Source: Candidatus Fraserbacteria bacterium
GTDB lineage: Bacteria > Bipolaricaulota > Bipolaricaulia > RBG-16-55-9
Assembly (NCBI GenBank): GCA_037443265.1
Contig: JBBIOR010000003.1
Span: 18,192 to 82,191, forward strand
Length of the DNA: 64,000 bases
Direction: 5' to 3'
The first letter of the stretch is position 1, and every line of letters begins with the position of its first letter. The translations under genes and the position numbers were made by a program. The notes under the pieces are model-generated. The model saw nothing but the letters and a program-made list of their open reading frames with translations. It did no database searches and was not told the origin of the DNA. Positions 8,884 to 20,350 of the stretch are shown piece after piece.

Positions 8884-8903
8884 GAAGGGGCCCCGGCCCC
8901 TTC
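8884..8903 (-). terminator. GC-rich hairpin at the stop codon of the 118-aa ORF (no U-tract)
   Basis: GAAGGGG-CCCCGG-CCCCTTC is self-complementary (7-bp stem). No T-run follows on either strand, so it is only terminator-like. Confidence 0.3.
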
Positions 8904-9258
8904 ATTGGGTACCCTGAGCACTCTTGCCGTTGCCAAACAAGGCGTTCAAGAAGAAGATCAACCCCATCCCGATCGCCGTGCCCAGCACAATGCCCTCACC
9001 AAATCTCTCCTTGCCTGCAAACCGCTGCTGGGTGTACCCACAATGGATGCAGCGAAGGTACTCGTTCTCCTTCTCCGTCTTAAACGGCTCCAGTTTGGAT
9101 TTGCAGATGGGACAGCTCTGGGGCTCCAAGATCTCCGAAGGGATCTTATCAATGCCCTTCTTGATCAAGGCCAGCTCGACCTCTTTGGCGTTCTCATACA
9201 CCCAGAGCGGCACCTTGATCGTCTTGTAGGCCTCGACATCTTTTGCCATCGCGTTCAT
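8902..9258 (-). CDS. Small zinc-ribbon protein with a C-terminal transmembrane helix (function unknown)
   Basis: 118 aa. CPIC...CIHC pair, then GIVLGTAIGMGLIFFLNALF. It has its own consensus promoter. The region looks less GC-rich than its neighbours by eye. Confidence 0.5.
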   Translation of the reverse strand: MNAMAKDVEAYKTIKVPLWVYENAKEVELALIKKGIDKIPSEILEPQSCPICKSKLEPFKTEKENEYLRCIHCGYTQQRFAGKERFGEGIVLGTAIGMGLIFFLNALFGNGKSAQGTQ

Positions 9259-9323: not shown

Positions 9324-9352
9324 ATTATATACTCTTTCTACCCAGCTGTCAA
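9324..9352 (-). promoter_or_regulatory. Consensus sigma70 promoter for the 118-aa ORF
   Basis: Minus strand: TTGACA (9352-9347), 17-nt spacer, TATAAT (9329-9324). Followed by an imperfect inverted repeat GCCACTTAGAAG / CTACCAAGTGGC (9323-9312 and 9287-9276). Confidence 0.5.
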
Positions 9353-11631: not shown

Positions 11632-11647
11632 ATTATATTATATTATA

Positions 11648-12445
11648 TTATTCTCGGCGGAGCTGGCGCTGGAGGCTCCGCAGCTTCTCTTCCGGGATGT
11701 CTATCACTCCTTGGGCGGTGATGGTCTTCGCCAGCGGGGGTGGCCCAATCAAGCCGGCCGTGGCCGGATCTAAGCTGGCCGCGATGTCCAGCAAGAGCAG
11801 CGATTCTTTGAGCACCTCCTCCAAAGGCATCTCATGGAAGGGCCCGCGGGTTCGGGCAATATACTCGAACGTGCCGCGGATCTTCTCCGCGCCCGAGCCG
11901 GCCGCTCCATATTCTCGGCTCTCGAAGCGCGCGCCCAGCATGTCATAGAAGAAGATTCGTCCCTGAGTGGCCGTGCGATCATAGGCGCTCACGATGGGCA
12001 AAAATCCCCCCAAGCCCTGCAGCGCGCCGGGGAGGCTCTGAGCCAGCACTCGAGAGACTTCCGCGAGCTTTCCCTCTAGGCTCATCTCCTGAAGCTGGCT
12101 GCGGGCGTAGTATTTGAACGAGTGCCTCAGGAAACGGGCCGCTTCCGCCGCTGGAGCGTAGGAGCCGGCTACGGCAATGAGTGTGTAATCATCCAGTTTG
12201 AGGATCTTCTCGGCCTCGTCGTAGAGGATGCCCCCCGCTGAGGTGGCCCGCCGATCGGCCACGTTGAGGACTCCCTCGCTGAATTTGAGCGCGATGACGG
12301 TGGTGCCCCAAGCGGCTGAGGCCCTTTCCGCTTCCTGCCCCCAGGCGAGGGTCTGTCTTGCCAGCGGCAGAGGAATCCCCGCGCGCTGGAGCAGACGCGA
12401 GAAATCCCCCCAAGTCCCATCGTGTTCCGGGCCCATGGGGTTCAC
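11648..12445 (-). CDS. prcB: 20S proteasome beta subunit with a 47-aa propeptide
   Basis: The ...AAWG|TTVIALKF junction gives Thr1 at residue 48. Asp17 (VADRR) and Lys33 (EAEKILK) are at the expected spacing. The GTG start overlaps the upstream stop (GTGA). Confidence 0.85.
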   Translation of the reverse strand: MNPMGPEHDGTWGDFSRLLQRAGIPLPLARQTLAWGQEAERASAAWGTTVIALKFSEGVLNVADRRATSAGGILYDEAEKILKLDDYTLIAVAGSYAPAAEAARFLRHSFKYYARSQLQEMSLEGKLAEVSRVLAQSLPGALQGLGGFLPIVSAYDRTATQGRIFFYDMLGARFESREYGAAGSGAEKIRGTFEYIARTRGPFHEMPLEEVLKESLLLLDIAASLDPATAGLIGPPPLAKTITAQGVIDIPEEKLRSLQRQLRRE

Positions 12446-12621
12446 TCTCCGCTGCGCTGGCGATAGCGACGGGCCTGTCTGGGGTCTACGCGCTTCATTC
12501 GCTCGAGCAGCTCGCGCGTGTTGGGCCTCTCCACCTCAGGCGCGCGCGGATGGCTCTCTTCGTCCTCATGGGGCTTCGTCCAGGGATCGTCCGTGACCGG
12601 CCGGGTCTTGCGCTCGGGCAT
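12442..12621 (-). CDS. Pup-like small protein modifier, UBact-type (59 aa)
   Basis: MPERKTRPVTDDPWTKPHEDEESHPRAPEVERPNTRELLERMKRVDPRQARRYRQRSGE. Low-complexity, charged, C-terminal Glu. GGAGGTGAACGG precedes the ATG at 12621. Sits between the dop-like gene and prcB. Confidence 0.68.
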   Translation of the reverse strand: MPERKTRPVTDDPWTKPHEDEESHPRAPEVERPNTRELLERMKRVDPRQARRYRQRSGE

Positions 12622-12626
12622 TCCGT

Positions 12627-14129
12627 TCACCTCCTCAGGCGTCGTTCGGAGTCTGCCACCCATTGTATCAAGTCTTCCAGCGTCGCATCATAGGGGACCT
12701 CGAGCGTTCCGCCCACGAGATTCTTCAGGTCGAGCTCTACAGTTCTGTTCCGGTGAGTCACCATCACTCGGCTCCAGCTGGCGGATCGCACCTCGAAGCG
12801 CTGCACGCACAGCCCGCGCAGGAAGGCTCGCGTATCCTGGGGTGCTCTTCGCATGGCCTCCTCGATCTCCGCCTCGTGAGTCCAGCGTCGCAGGGCTCCT
12901 GCTCTTTCCAGCGCCCGGGAGAGTCCACGCTCCGGATCGAGATTGTGATATTCCAGTTCGAGGCTGCATAAGAGATCGAGATCGCCCTTCACCGGGGCCC
13001 CTTCGCTCTCAATGAAAGATTCCAAAAGTTCGCGCTTGGCCACCCAGTCGAGGCGGTCCTTGAGCCGCCGCGGATCGGCCTCAAGATCATCCAGCACGCT
13101 CTCCCACTCGCGAAGCACCCAGTCTGTCTCCTCATCCCGACCGGCGAAGAGCTCTTGGGCCGCCCGTAGATAGGCCCGTTGGATGTCGATGGCCGGAATC
13201 GTCCTGCCAGAGATCTGTTCGACCAGCCAGTGTCGATCTTGATCGTGAGAGATCTGCTTTATCGCCCGCACCGGATCCTTGAGTTCGACGGGTGGGCCGT
13301 AACCGGCTTCGAGAGTGGCCAGCACCAGAGCGGTCGTGCCCATCTTGAGAGCCGTGGCATACTCGCTCAAATTCGCATCTCCACAGATGACGTGCAGGCG
13401 ACGCCACTTATGGCGATCCGCGTGGGGCTCATCGCGGGTGTTGATGAGCGGCCTGTGATGGAGCGTATCTATGCCCAAGATCTCATCGAAAAAGTCCGCG
13501 CGCTGTGAGAGCTGATAGATGACCCGCTCTCCCGCGGCTTGCGGGTCGGTGCCTACCTTGCCGGCTCCGGCATAGAGAATACGCGTGACGAGAAAGGGCA
13601 GAATCCCGTTCACCAACTGCTCCAGGGGAATCACGCGCGGCACCAGATAATTCTCATGGCAGCCGTAGCTCATGCCGTGGTAGTCCGTGTTATTTTTATA
13701 GACGGACACGGCCCGCCCCGTGCGCTGCTCATAGCGCTTGGCGCAGGCCCATACGATGCGCTCCCCGGCCCGATCCTGGGCGATGAGATCTTTCAAGCTG
13801 TGGCACTCCGGTGTGCTGTACTCTGGATGGCCGTGATCGTGATAGAGCCGAGCGCCGTTTGGGAGCACGCGATCCACGTGCTCTTCGTGAGCGGTGCGCG
13901 GCCTGGGAGCGTGAGAGATCCTTTCATAGCGATCGTCTTTGGGGTTGGTTCTTAGGCGAGGAGCGCGGAAGCCGCGCAGATCTTGCAAGGGGCTCTCGTC
14001 ACGATAGTCCCAGCGAGGCCCCGCCGGAAGAAAACTCACAAGCGCTCGGGCCTCCGAAGTGAGATCCCCTATATCCACGCCCTCGATATACAGGCCGTAT
14101 TCCGTCTCTAACCCGAGCAGGCGATCCAT
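12627..14129 (-). CDS. dop: Pup/UBact deamidase-depupylase family protein, Dop-like paralog
   Basis: LLGLETEYG, RWDYRDESPLQDLRGF plus a long loop before NGARLYHDHGHPEYSTPEC, YGCHENY, INTRDEPHAD, LHVICGDANLSE. Located immediately upstream of the modifier gene. Confidence 0.82.
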   Translation of the reverse strand: MDRLLGLETEYGLYIEGVDIGDLTSEARALVSFLPAGPRWDYRDESPLQDLRGFRAPRLRTNPKDDRYERISHAPRPRTAHEEHVDRVLPNGARLYHDHGHPEYSTPECHSLKDLIAQDRAGERIVWACAKRYEQRTGRAVSVYKNNTDYHGMSYGCHENYLVPRVIPLEQLVNGILPFLVTRILYAGAGKVGTDPQAAGERVIYQLSQRADFFDEILGIDTLHHRPLINTRDEPHADRHKWRRLHVICGDANLSEYATALKMGTTALVLATLEAGYGPPVELKDPVRAIKQISHDQDRHWLVEQISGRTIPAIDIQRAYLRAAQELFAGRDEETDWVLREWESVLDDLEADPRRLKDRLDWVAKRELLESFIESEGAPVKGDLDLLCSLELEYHNLDPERGLSRALERAGALRRWTHEAEIEEAMRRAPQDTRAFLRGLCVQRFEVRSASWSRVMVTHRNRTVELDLKNLVGGTLEVPYDATLEDLIQWVADSERRLRR

Positions 14130-14142
14130 GAGCGCAACGTCA

Positions 14143-15834
14143 TCATACCACGGAATCCGTGGAGAGTCTTCGGCTATCAGCCCGAATCGGACGGACCTCC
14201 ACGACTTCCTCTGGGTCGTAGTCGATGAGTTTCAGCCAGTCTTCCAGATAGTCCGTCTTGGGGAATATCTCATTTTCTTTATATTCGAGTCGGATCGCCT
14301 CTTTCAGGTCTTGGGGGCGGATGCCCTCGTGCTTGCTAGCCCGCTCGATGCTGCGCTGGATCGCGAAATCTTTGGCGCGCTCTACGGCGGACATGATGAG
14401 CGCGCCGCTCACCAGATCGCTCCAGTAGAGCGTCTCGCGTCGGCCACTCTTTAGCACCACTTCCAGAAACGCCGTCTCAGGGCCACGGCGGAAGAGGTAG
14501 TCTGCGGCCTGCTCCACCAGCTCGTCGCGGGAGGCCTTCACATCCCCATCGTGCTCCCTTATCCAGTCGGGATCGAGGGGGATACGCTCGTTCAGATAGA
14601 TTCTGAATATATCCGCCGAGGCCCGGCGATCCGGCCGGCCGATCTTCACTTTTCTATCGATGCGCTCCGGTCTTAAGATGGCCGGATCGATGTAATCCGG
14701 GCGGTTGGAGGTGAGCATGACGATGACGTTCTCCAGACCCACCAGGCCATCCATCTCCGCGGCGAACTGAGGCACAACCGTGTTGGCAATGTTGAGATAT
14801 CTTCCGCTGCTGCGCACGCGGAGCAAAGAGTCCGCTTCGTCGATGAACACAAACACGAGATGGCCCTCTTTGGCCCGCTCACGGGCCGCGGCGAAGATCT
14901 CGCGCACCATGCGCTCGGTCTCGCCCAGCCACATGTTCAACAATTGCGGCCCGTTGATGAACATGAAATACTCGCGCACATCTTTGCCGACGCGCTCCCT
15001 ATAGGCCTGCGTGAGATTATAGGCCGTGGCTTTGGCGATGAGCGTCTTGCCGCACCCCGGCGGTCCGTAAAGCAAGATACCCTTCAGCTGCTTCTTGTCA
15101 AATCTCTCATAGAGCTCGGGATAGAGCAGCGGCCGCTCGATCGTGTCCCGAATGAGCCGGATCGCTTCCTCCTGGCCGCCGATCTGGTCCCAAGCGATCT
15201 CCGGAATCTTCTCCAAATAATAGCCCCGCACTTCGGACTTTTGGAAGTGTTCGAGCGCCACGCGCAACGAGGGCTCCAGGCGGACCTCATCTCCGGGCTT
15301 GAGGGTGATCTTCTCCAGATCCGACGAGCGCAGGATGATCCGCCCCGCCAGATGCCCATCGCTCGAGACCCTCAGTCGCCCATCGGGCAGGATCTCTGAG
15401 ACTTTGACAATGGGACCCTCGGGGTGATAGCCCAGATCGCCAATGACCGTAAAAGCCTCATTGACCTTCACGCGGGTGCCGATCTTCAGAGCCTTGGGGT
15501 CGAGCTTGGGGTCCACGTTGCAGTAGTATTCCGCATCGCCTACGGCCAGATAGGCGATGCCCTCGGCTGGAGAGCCCAGATACGTGCCGATGCGGTTCGC
15601 CGGAGCAGTGAGTTTTCTATAGACCTCTTCAAATTGGGCGATGGCCTGTCGGGCCTCTTGTAGCTGCTGTTCATCGACCCCAAGCTGATAATCCAGAAGC
15701 TCTAGTAGCTCTAGGCGGGGATCGCTCTGGGACGTACGCGCGAGGATCTCAGCTAAGAGGGCGCGGGCCCGGATCTGGGTCTCGAATCTCTTCGGCTCAA
15801 ACGATCCCTCGTGGGGCTGCTTGCGCCCGGCCAT
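14143..15834 (-). CDS. mpa: Proteasome-associated AAA ATPase (Mpa/ARC family)
   Basis: Start moved to MAGRKQPHEG (GAGGTGAGACC-ATG). N-terminal coiled coil, OB-like region, Walker A GPPGCGKT, Walker B FVFIDEAD. First gene of the operon. Confidence 0.82.
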   Translation of the reverse strand: MAGRKQPHEGSFEPKRFETQIRARALLAEILARTSQSDPRLELLELLDYQLGVDEQQLQEARQAIAQFEEVYRKLTAPANRIGTYLGSPAEGIAYLAVGDAEYYCNVDPKLDPKALKIGTRVKVNEAFTVIGDLGYHPEGPIVKVSEILPDGRLRVSSDGHLAGRIILRSSDLEKITLKPGDEVRLEPSLRVALEHFQKSEVRGYYLEKIPEIAWDQIGGQEEAIRLIRDTIERPLLYPELYERFDKKQLKGILLYGPPGCGKTLIAKATAYNLTQAYRERVGKDVREYFMFINGPQLLNMWLGETERMVREIFAAARERAKEGHLVFVFIDEADSLLRVRSSGRYLNIANTVVPQFAAEMDGLVGLENVIVMLTSNRPDYIDPAILRPERIDRKVKIGRPDRRASADIFRIYLNERIPLDPDWIREHDGDVKASRDELVEQAADYLFRRGPETAFLEVVLKSGRRETLYWSDLVSGALIMSAVERAKDFAIQRSIERASKHEGIRPQDLKEAIRLEYKENEIFPKTDYLEDWLKLIDYDPEEVVEVRPIRADSRRLSTDSVV

Positions 15835-17243: not shown

Positions 17244-17319
<76 letters not shown>

Positions 17320-18116: not shown

Positions 18117-18869
18117 GTGATGTCCCGTAGGGCATTCTGGGTCATTGGGGGAATGATCTGCTTCGGGCTCTTTAAGGGTCTGGCAGCCGAAGAGCCTCCG
18201 CTCCCCCAGCCGATAGGGGAGCTCAACGACTACGCGGGCATCCTGGGACAAGAGAGCCGCCAGCAACTCCAACGCAGCATCGATGAGCTGAAGACCCAAG
18301 GCGTGAAGGTGTTTTTGCTGATCACTCTTCTTGATCCCTTCAGCGATCCTGCGCAGCTGGCAGAGAGGATCTGGCAGGCGTGGAAGCTTGCGCCTGAGCG
18401 AACGATCCTCATCGTGTTCGTGAGGGAGGCAGACCAGTGGGCTCTCTGGTGGAAGCTCACGCCGGATCTGGCCTCACAGTTGGACTACTCCTCCACTGGG
18501 GAGTATCGGAGCTCTCTGGAGCGGCTCCTCAAAGAGCGGCGGGTGGGACAGGCTGTTGTGCATTCCATTGAGTCGCTGCGAGGGTGGTTTGCCCCTCCCA
18601 AAGCGTCTGAGGAACTTCCGCCCAGAGCGGGTCCTTCTGCGGGCTCTCCGCTCTTCTGGTACCTGCTGGCAGGAGCAGGCGGAGTGGGGATGATTGCAGG
18701 CTTGATCTGGTTCGCTCTCGTCTGGCTCTGCCCCGAGTGCGGGGGGAGGCTGAGCCGGCGTTCTGCCTGGGCTTTCGGGCCCGGCCGTTGGGCTCGTAGC
18801 CGGAGGCGCGAGCGGGTATACTATTGTGCGCGATGTGGGTATCTCCGCATCCGACGGGGAGAGAGGTAG
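18117..18869 (+). CDS. TPM-domain (YgcG-like) membrane protein with a C-terminal zinc ribbon
   Basis: Signal/TM, LNDYAGILGQESRQQLQRSIDELKTQGVKVFLLI (TPM signature), a TM, then CPECGG...YYCARCGY. Confidence 0.65.
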   Translation: MMSRRAFWVIGGMICFGLFKGLAAEEPPLPQPIGELNDYAGILGQESRQQLQRSIDELKTQGVKVFLLITLLDPFSDPAQLAERIWQAWKLAPERTILIVFVREADQWALWWKLTPDLASQLDYSSTGEYRSSLERLLKERRVGQAVVHSIESLRGWFAPPKASEELPPRAGPSAGSPLFWYLLAGAGGVGMIAGLIWFALVWLCPECGGRLSRRSAWAFGPGRWARSRRRERVYYCARCGYLRIRRGER

Positions 18870-19215
18870 AGGGCCGCGGAAGCGTCAAAGCTTCTGAGGA
18901 AAGTCCGGGCTCCACAGGGCAGGCCGCTCGGTGAGAAGCCGAGAGGGAGCGATCCCTGGGTAAGGCCACAGAGACCAGACCGCCGACGTGTACTTCAGCC
19001 GACAGGCCCGAAGCGCACAGGCAAGGGTGAAAGGGTGGGGTAAGAGCCCACCGCCGGTCCTCGCGAGAGGGCCGTGGCTGGCAGCCCCCCGGCCGGAGCA
19101 AGGCCAAATAGGCAGGCGCTTGAGGGTGGCCCGCCCGAGCCTGTGGGTAGGCCGCTCAGATAGATGGCCCTCGCCCTTCATCAGGGAACAGAACCCGGCT
19201 TACGCCTCTCTCCCC
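18856..19215 (+). ncRNA. rnpB: RNase P RNA, bacterial type A
   Basis: GAGGAAAGTCCGGGCTCCACAGGGCAG, AGGGTGAAAGGGTGGGGTAAGAGCCCACC, GCAAGGCCAAATAGG and ACAGAACCCGGCTTA. P1 pairs GGGGAGAGAGG (18856-66) with CCTCTCTCCCC (19205-15). Confidence 0.9.
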
Positions 19216-19381
19216 GGCTTTGCTTTTCTGCCTGACAGCAACGCTTGGGTGCTCTTTGGGTCTTCGGTCCTCCGGAGCCCTGACTCCCATGCTGTGGCTC
19301 CTTGGCCCCTGCCTGCCGCGTCCCGACGAGCATCCTAGCACAAAGCGACGGAGGGGACAAATGCCCTCTCTTAAGTTCGGC

Positions 19382-19409: not shown

Positions 19410-19774
19410 AGCCTTGCGTTCTTTGACAATTGGGGGTGAATGGATTCGACGGGGATGCCGAAGGGCAGGCCGCAGGTGGAGTTGGCCGCTCACTCCTTAA
19501 TCAGGCGGCAAAGCACGATAAGTGCCAACGAATTTGCTTACGCTGCTCCTTCGCTAAACTAACGAAGGAGCCGTTCGCTTGAGCTTCCGCCTGCAGGGCT
19601 CAGGACGAACGTCGATGATGCGGGCTGGCTCTACTCTGCGCCCTCCGGAGTGGAGTGACACCTAGAGGGCTCGGACGCCCAGATCCTGTCTCGTGGGAGC
19701 TTAGCGTCTCAAAACAGAGCACGAGACTATGCCTGTAGAAGCCGATCGGAGGCATCTCCGGACGCGGGTTCGAT

Positions 19775-20350
19775 CAACTGCGTTATGGCAGTAAGGGTCG
19801 TCAAGGCGTTATCTCAAGCTGAGGCAGCCTATTTAGCTGGGCTTGTGGACGGCGAAGGTACTATCACCTTGACCCACATACATAAAGGAGCTAATAGGCA
19901 GCTGTCGGTTTCCATAGCCAACGCACAAGCTCTAGAGCTACTTCAGCAAATCGCGCCGTACCTCCGAACCTACAAGAGGTTACGCGCTGAGCTGGTGATA
20001 GAAAGATACAAAGCCTTGACGCCTAGAAACGGCAAATACTCCCCCGAGCTTCTGGCTGAACGGGAGAGATTCATAGCAGCTGTCCTTGCCATAACTCCGA
20101 AGGTCGCCCTGGGCAGTAATGCTCAGGTGAACACGGGGCTCACATCGGCGAAACCTGCTTGCCCACAAGGCAATGGCAACGCCGAGGGGTCGGAAGAGGG
20201 CTAACCTCAGGCCGGCCCTGTAGAGACTTATAGGCCCGCCGAAGCTCAAGCTGGGTGGGTACTAGGAGCACGTCAACGTGCTAAGACGCCCCGCATCCCA
20301 GGAGGGATGAAGGCATAGTCCAGCCCAGTCCGAAAGGATTGGAACCGCTG
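19775..20350 (+). mobile_element. Group I intron (IC3-like core) inserted in the tmRNA T-loop
   Basis: Preceded by U, ends in G. P4 CGGCG/CGCCG (20146-50 / 20180-84); P7 GACU(U)AU/AUAGUC (20225-31 / 20315-20); P8 hairpin 20267-82; P9 hairpin with GAAA loop 20325-42. Carries a LAGLIDADG ORF. Confidence 0.75.
19785..20204 (+). CDS. Single-motif LAGLIDADG homing endonuclease-like protein (short, possibly degenerate)
   Basis: 139 aa with AAYLAGLVDGEGTITL. The C-terminal ~30 codons (low complexity) overlap the ribozyme core. Confidence 0.72.
   Translation: MAVRVVKALSQAEAAYLAGLVDGEGTITLTHIHKGANRQLSVSIANAQALELLQQIAPYLRTYKRLRAELVIERYKALTPRNGKYSPELLAERERFIAAVLAITPKVALGSNAQVNTGLTSAKPACPQGNGNAEGSEEG

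Follow-up and report, generated by a model that had tools for sequence, protein, structure and literature searches.

The stretch of DNA analyzed in this work (64,000 nt, hereafter the window) carries a small open reading frame on its minus strand, placed between a gene for a Dop-like enzyme and the proteasome gene prcB. This raises the question of whether the frame encodes a protein modifier, from which codon it is translated, and what its terminal Glu means for the Dop-like enzyme next to it. Our analyses showed that the small ORF is the gene for UBact, a Pup-like modifier. It belongs to a known system, of which it is an ordinary Glu-ending member, with nothing new about it. The 59-aa product (MPERKTRPVTDDPWTKPHEDEESHPRAPEVERPNTRELLERMKRVDPRQARRYRQRSGE) matched the NCBIfam equivalog NF033388 with 79.5 bits (cutoff 35) and Pfam PF20513 with 71.5 bits (cutoff 27.8), and the E-values of the ORF against the family HMMs were 1.6e-22 and 4.9e-20. 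A chance ORF is hence not a sensible explanation, given these E-values, the presence of the ORF in 74 of 80 related loci, and codon differences from L001 that are synonymous only in the C-terminal 25 codons.

In a protein search we recovered 43 homologs, mostly of 56 to 60 aa, and the closest database members were 80 to 83% identical to UBact of the window. Some homologs, from Candidatus Acetothermia and Candidatus Fraserbacteria, carry the NCBI name 'ubiquitin-like protein UBact'. UBact was reportedly described bioinformatically by Lehmann, Udasin, Livneh and Ciechanover in 2017. An exhaustive search with the UBact profile yielded 183 cluster representatives among 1.84 billion, in which the match nearly always reached the last residue; in the window, a six-frame search gave a single UBact match and no second copy. 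With the UBact family, the gene shares the HMM match, the size, the R-Y-R-Q-R-S-G-E terminus, a non-actinobacterial host, and the immediate vicinity of Dop/PafA homologs, proteasome subunits and an ARC ATPase, and we found no difference of substance. Earlier, Iyer et al. 2008 (PMC2588565) had pointed to G[EQ]-ending Pup-like tags outside Actinobacteria, and a passage in PMC12751074 cites Lehmann et al. 2017 (BBRC 483:946) for UBact.

The gene is part of a group of six tightly packed genes on the minus strand in the order arc/mpa, dop, ubact, prcB, prcA and pafA (Table 1). The intergenic gaps along this row are 13, 5, 5 (or a 4-nt overlap at ubact/prcB), 16 and 5 nt, and the six genes are probably translated from a single mRNA as one operon. 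A promoter and terminator scan gave no signal inside the operon, be it promoter or terminator, that exceeded chance and would divide it. On the operon strand, the scan found no terminator-like site beyond arc, and its site counts were at chance level. The ARC, Dop, PafA and proteasome-subunit matches each stayed below the respective NCBIfam equivalog cutoff.

Table 1. The ubact operon of the window: positions, strands and bases of assignment.
Feature	Position	Strand	Basis or remark
PafA-type paralog, presumed UBact ligase, 494 aa	9380..10864	-	PafA-type motifs, no Dop-loop
prcA, proteasome alpha subunit, 253 aa	10870..11631	-	TIGR03691 74.8 bits; PF00227; 16 nt after prcB
prcB, proteasome beta subunit, 262 aa	11648..12436	-	PF00227, TIGR03690; public call ATG 12436
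ubact CDS, 59 aa + TGA	12442..12621	-	NF033388, PF20513; ends ...RYRQRSGE
GGAGG Shine-Dalgarno (SD) of ubact	12630..12634	-	inside last dop codons, 8 nt before ATG
Dop-type (depupylase/deamidase-like) carboxylate-amine ligase-fold enzyme, 500 aa	12627..14129	-	TIGR03688, Dop structures, Dop-loop
ARC/Mpa-like proteasomal AAA+ ATPase	14143..15834	-	TIGR03689 443.5 bits; Pfam: two OB domains + AAA domain

The arrangement is widely kept. With the Dop protein as query we recovered 80 loci, and 74 of them had UBact directly downstream of the Dop-type gene on the same strand, so that the expectation of the first-pass annotation that a genuine gene would persist in homologous loci was borne out; the six others include at least four (L069, L075, L079, L080) that had been retrieved via the PafA-type paralog instead. 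PrcB was the next gene after UBact in 63 loci, the window counted. The host, an uncultured bacterium sampled in a subsurface metagenome, has its nearest relatives in Candidatus Fraserbacteria: the Dop-type protein of the window is 68 to 69% identical to its counterparts in two Candidatus Fraserbacteria genomes, and the nearest genomes are from Candidatus Fraserbacteria, Bipolaricaulia and Armatimonadota. For comparison we used the public gene calls on the same contig in the subsurface-metagenome assembly GCA_964641905.1. Among the sequencing runs searched, the sequence occurred in DNA runs of one subsurface-metagenome study only, and in no RNA run. One locus (L056, JADZEW010000030.1) bears the label 'Methanoregulaceae archaeon'. 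Its Dop-UBact region hardly differs from the one in a Fimbriimonadaceae MAG (L055), and the locus is probably no archaeal UBact but part of a mis-binned bacterial contig.

Where does translation of ubact start? The longest frame, 73 aa at 12663..12442, overlaps the 3' end of dop by 37 nt, dop stop codon included; the first-pass annotation noted the overlap and moved the start inward to ATG 12621. The dop gene ends with TGA at 12629..12627, and the internal ATG (12621..12619) follows after a gap of 5 nt (ACGGA), exactly as described there. The GGAGG motif named as its SD is likewise present, but the spacer to the ATG measures 8 nt (TGAACGGA) and not 7. In the four closest loci (the window, L001, L002 and L005), GAGGAGGTGA is followed by 3 to 5 nt and then the start codon, which is a GTG at the same position in L001; more widely, an SD-like motif lies 3 to 12 nt upstream of the start in 53 of 75 loci. 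The N-terminus MPER(K) is conserved as well, with M1, P2, E3 and R4 each present in at least 90% of homologs. Start codon, SD and C-terminal motif, the elements whose conservation across orthologous loci had been proposed as a check, are all conserved, the SD pattern among the nearest relatives.

It is hardly credible, in contrast, that the real product is the 73-aa form read from ATG 12663, with a 14-residue N-terminal extension that runs over the dop end. This form is the longest ORF, and a few homologs are also called long, e.g., P0023 (68 aa), P0037 to P0039 (72 to 74 aa) and many 50%-identity representatives, but in the long representatives the extensions differ among themselves and the UBact match is always C-terminal. 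The extension itself is not conserved. The ATG of L002 comes immediately after a stop codon, and in L005 such a codon is found a single codon upstream, which makes a 14-codon extension impossible in both, and L001 has only GTG candidates in the corresponding stretch. Moreover, the 54 positions of the NF033388 profile align only from residue 21 of the 73-aa ORF onward, no GGAGG-type SD was seen before ATG 12663 on inspection by eye, and it is at 12621 that the pattern of SD, spacer and start is conserved. The public gene call on the contig is 59 aa as well. The comparison of loci hence gives good support to ATG 12621 as the true start and to 59 aa as the length of the real product. The value of this result lies mainly in annotation, where the correct product has 59 aa and the correct name is UBact. 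Over-long calls are common in the family.

These over-long calls deserve a remark of their own. Many of the 50%-identity UBact representatives (P0045 to P0193) are 80 to 160 aa long, with the match at the extreme C-terminus and with N-terminal extensions that are not conserved; they look like gene-calling artifacts caused by over-long starts, stop read-through or frameshifts. Other calls (P0078, P0085, P0097, P0099, P0133 and others) continue past the terminal E/Q, for example with ...RTGQ followed by W or Y. We considered these residues as parts of processed precursors and rejected this reading, given their appearance of read-through or frameshift.

The 59-aa protein has the composition that had been ascribed to it: 47% of its residues are D, E, K or R, it contains 8 Pro (14%), and only 9 residues are hydrophobic. 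Its C-terminal half is strongly basic (net +5), whereas Pup is acidic. AlphaFold2 with the family alignment gave a model of low confidence (pLDDT 62.8, pTM 0.20), in which residues 1 to 34 are predicted without secondary structure and two short helices (35 to 42 and 47 to 57) are separated at V-D-P. A 'bihelical unit' together with a G[EQ] terminus was described for Pup-like tags (PMC2588565). The predicted shape of UBact fits a disordered tag that would fold on binding, as the same work predicts for Pup-like proteins.

Conservation is concentrated at the C-terminus. UBact of the window ends in VDPRQARRYRQRSGE, and the TGA follows directly, so that the terminal Glu previously called ligation-ready (...RQRSGE) is indeed the last residue encoded. 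R-Y-R-Q-R-S-G is invariant in the 43 homologs, the -3 position (S or T) is invariant in the UBact family, and the last 15 residues, with the ending R-Y-R-Q-R-[ST]-G-[EQ]-stop, are almost invariant across Fraserbacteria, Bipolaricaulia, Armatimonadota, Nitrospira and Latescibacterota. Between the window and L001, the C-terminal 25 codons contain 14 synonymous-only codon differences and no amino-acid change; pairs among the window, L001, L002, L005 and L003 differ by 8 to 16 synonymous-only codons vs 0 to 4 amino-acid changes. Judged from these codon counts, the C-terminal 25 codons of UBact are under strong purifying selection.

The operon contains two paralogous ligase-fold enzymes, upstream and downstream of the tag, which we assigned with the Dop/PafA discriminating positions of PMC7947786 (Table 1 there) and further Dop criteria from PMC8599861. 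These signatures separate the paralogs cleanly into 77 of Dop type and 44 of PafA type. The upstream enzyme of the window belongs to the Dop type. It scored 429.7 bits with TIGR03688 (not reaching the cutoff of 492.3) and 363.6 bits with TIGR03686, and its best PDB matches, in full-length alignment, were Dop (4b0r/5lrt, 352 bits) ahead of PafA (249 bits). It aligns end to end with Dop of Acidothermus cellulolyticus/Corynebacterium glutamicum (4B0R, 5LRT) and contains the Dop-loop of about 40 aa, as residues about 40 to 88 align with Dop only and RWDYRDE aligns to the W47 region. In addition to this W-D-[FY]-x-[DE]-E signature, equivalents of R227, H231, H241 and W453 of Dop are found, and the sequence features D-H-G-H-P-E-Y-S-T-P without insertion, NTRDEPH, and S-A-S-W near the C-terminus.

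The downstream enzyme presents a more mixed picture. It lacks the Dop-loop, has a PafA-type insertion and carries G-S beside the catalytic Asp (D-V-V-G-S-H-x-E-Y-A-T), all in likeness to PafA (4B0T, 4BJR set), and an acidic residue precedes the W near its C-terminus (E-W). TIGR03686 scored higher (321 bits) than TIGR03688 (303 bits), whereas pairwise search gave more bits with Dop structures (262) than with PafA structures (214). It differs from PafA in that the alpha-loop signature is only partly kept (H, S, S), and from the Dop and PafA structures alike in having INPKWDSFQD in place of INTRDEPHAD, i.e., K-W-D-S for R-D-E-P-H, and an insertion of about 37 aa after AGAGRVG (residues 171 to 207). 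Furthermore, a Lys occupies the position of Dop R227, an Arg that contacts the gamma-phosphate/Pi (PMC8599861). The exchange is not peculiar to the window, as the 44 PafA-type paralogs form two conserved subtypes, one with NTR-DEPLAD (Nitrospira and Latescibacterota types) and one with NPK-WDSYY (Armatimonadota, Fraserbacteria, Bipolaricaulia). By these sequence features, the enzyme is a divergent PafA subtype.

What does a Glu-ending tag need a Dop-type enzyme for? Among 75 loci the terminal residue of the tag was Glu in 46 and Gln in 29, all of them beside a Dop-type gene, and both endings occur within the same phyla. Actinobacteria with a Glu-ending Pup also retain dop, which was explained by the depupylase activity of Dop (PMC3511204). 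By analogy with these Pup-E organisms, the retention of dop beside the Glu-ending tag suggests that the Dop-type enzyme acts as a de-conjugase. This is the standard Pup argument transferred to UBact, and a depupylase-like role is a reasonable assumption. In the window, too, a UBact with terminal Glu is accompanied by an intact Dop-type gene, which fits the established view of Dop-type enzymes as retained for de-conjugation.

The best explanation of the locus, and one in which we have considerable confidence, is that UBact is encoded here in a non-actinobacterial operon of the Pup-proteasome type and is expressed as 59 aa from ATG 12621 via the GGAGG in the dop end, presumably to work as a tag in the manner of Pup. 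By homology to the Pup system, most of UBact would be disordered, its conserved C-terminal region would form two helices, and it would be synthesized with a free C-terminal Glu. The PafA-type ligase would activate the gamma-carboxylate of this Glu with ATP and join UBact to lysine side chains of target proteins. The ARC/Mpa-type ATPase would then recognize and unfold the tagged proteins and pass them on to the PrcA/PrcB 20S proteasome. With the Glu already in place, no deamidase step would be needed from the Dop-type enzyme, which may instead serve as the isopeptidase that removes UBact. Since UBact has no detectable similarity to Pup, this mechanism rests on the genomic context and the enzymes, not on the tag.

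In another conceivable reading, UBact would not be attached to targets but would regulate the ARC-proteasome complex or serve it as a non-covalent adaptor, or else the two ligase-fold enzymes would take it as a substrate or peptide precursor; we regard this as very improbable. Such a role would be in agreement with the absence of sequence similarity to Pup and with the literature on UBact conjugation, in which we found only citations of the 2017 bioinformatic description and no experimental demonstration. An origin of Pup-like tags from ribosomally made peptides was also put forward as a speculation in PMC2588565, as quoted in a passage of PMC3511204. The almost invariant last 15 residues across phyla argue against a non-covalent role, and so does the restriction of the terminal residue to E and Q, the very two to be expected if a tag is ligated via its gamma-carboxylate and deamidation is optional. 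Moreover, the operon retains a PafA-type as well as a Dop-type enzyme, and each of them shows the active-site signature that sets it apart from the other; we hence prefer the reading of UBact as a covalent tag.

As to its relation to Pup, the likeness lies in organization and predicted shape. The operon order arc-dop-tag-prcB-prcA...pafA is that of actinobacterial Pup, especially the Pup-E of Corynebacterium glutamicum, and Pup is also a small disordered tag with a two-helix C-terminal part and a Glu/Gln end (PMC2588565). In contrast, sequence similarity was not detectable: 37 UBact members gave no match to Pup in Pfam (PF05639) at E<=10, where only UBact was matched, and a search of NCBIfam at E<=0.01 likewise gave no match to Pup. 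The UBact profile matched no Pup chain in the PDB at E<=10, where only chance matches appeared, and a remote link of UBact to Pup or to a solved structure was rejected on these PDB and Pfam searches. The enzymes of the UBact operon furthermore fall below the actinobacterial equivalog cutoffs. The gene is filed under UBact and not as Pup proper because sequence similarity to Pup is absent and because it ends in S-G-E, where Pup has G-G-E/Q.

The remaining claim of the first-pass annotation concerned the junction with prcB, where the tag's stop codon was said to overlap a GTG start, which was taken to suggest coupled translation of tag and protease. The overlap is there, as the ubact TGA (12444..12442) overlaps a GTG (12445..12443) in frame with prcB, from which PrcB would have 265 aa and its gene would share 4 nt with ubact. 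Use of this GTG as the prcB start is uncertain, since TGA after a last codon GAR or CAR (here GAG+TGA) yields RTGA in any case, so that the GTGA overlap is only weakly informative. The public call, with 262 aa, instead uses ATG 12436. This codon lies 5 nt after the ubact stop and has a GGAG (12450..12447), part of the Gly-Glu codons of the tag, 10 nt upstream. The same GGAG ends 1 nt before GTG 12445, which is thus left without an SD at usable distance.

We consider it doubtful that prcB starts at GTG 12445 by termination-reinitiation at the GTGA overlap. The GTG is the first start codon of the prcB frame, and L001 and L002 have an ATGA at the same place. Among the 63 loci with PrcB directly downstream, the window counted, 22 have a -4 start in the PrcB frame, six of them with no other start within -4..+12; some prcB start lies in this range in 44 of the 63. 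All 22 cases, however, belong to the 27 loci with a TGA stop, where RTGA arises by itself, and in L001 and L002 a further ATG has a GGAG 7 nt before it. The choice hardly touches the mature protein, because the three disputed residues sit in the cleaved propeptide, which is 44 to 47 aa long depending on the start, 44 aa from ATG 12436; the active-site Thr is kept after it (G/TTVIALKF). ATG 12436 is about as likely a start as GTG 12445, or likelier. Under either start, ubact and prcB are tightly packed, and hence a coupling of their translation is possible.

One may speculate further and join these observations in a single reading: in this clade, the near-invariant Gly-Glu codons of the tag (GGA GAG/GAA) would also serve as the prcB ribosome-binding site, which together with the stop/start overlap or a gap of 2 to 5 nt would tie proteasome synthesis to tag synthesis, and the PafA-type ligase of Fraserbacteria, Armatimonadota and Bipolaricaulia, with its K-W-D-S and its insertion of about 37 aa, would be a variant in nucleotide handling or target recognition. 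We regard this combined proposal as improbable. Of 23 Glu-type loci with a nearby downstream start, 14 have GGA or GGG, vs a background of about 40%, and these loci are not independent of each other. This enrichment is weak, and we rejected the Gly-codon bias as evidence that the tag-end codons form the SD of prcB.

Some minor features of the region may be added. The prcB-prcA spacer (11632..11647, minus strand, 16 nt) reads TATAATATAATATAAT and consists of three TATAA units in GC-rich surroundings; L001, L002 and L005 have short unrelated spacers instead. No SD was found ahead of the prcA ATG. The public call of the ARC/Mpa-type ATPase starts at ATG 15834 and yields 563 aa, whereas the longest ORF, from TTG 15882, yields 579 aa. 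In mycobacterial Mpa the C-terminal docking motif is presumably different from the ...STDSVV with which this protein ends. Shortly after pafA, and ahead of a 118-aa ORF (8902..9258), the minus strand carries a perfect sigma-70 consensus (9324..9352, TTGACA + 17 nt + TATAAT, 12 of 12 matches). Finally, a tRNA-Ala(GGC) at 17244..17319 on the minus strand, a class A RNase P RNA at 18858..19217 (214.9 bits) and a tmRNA at 19439..19776 (131.7 bits), both on the plus strand, all lie within 2.6 kb.
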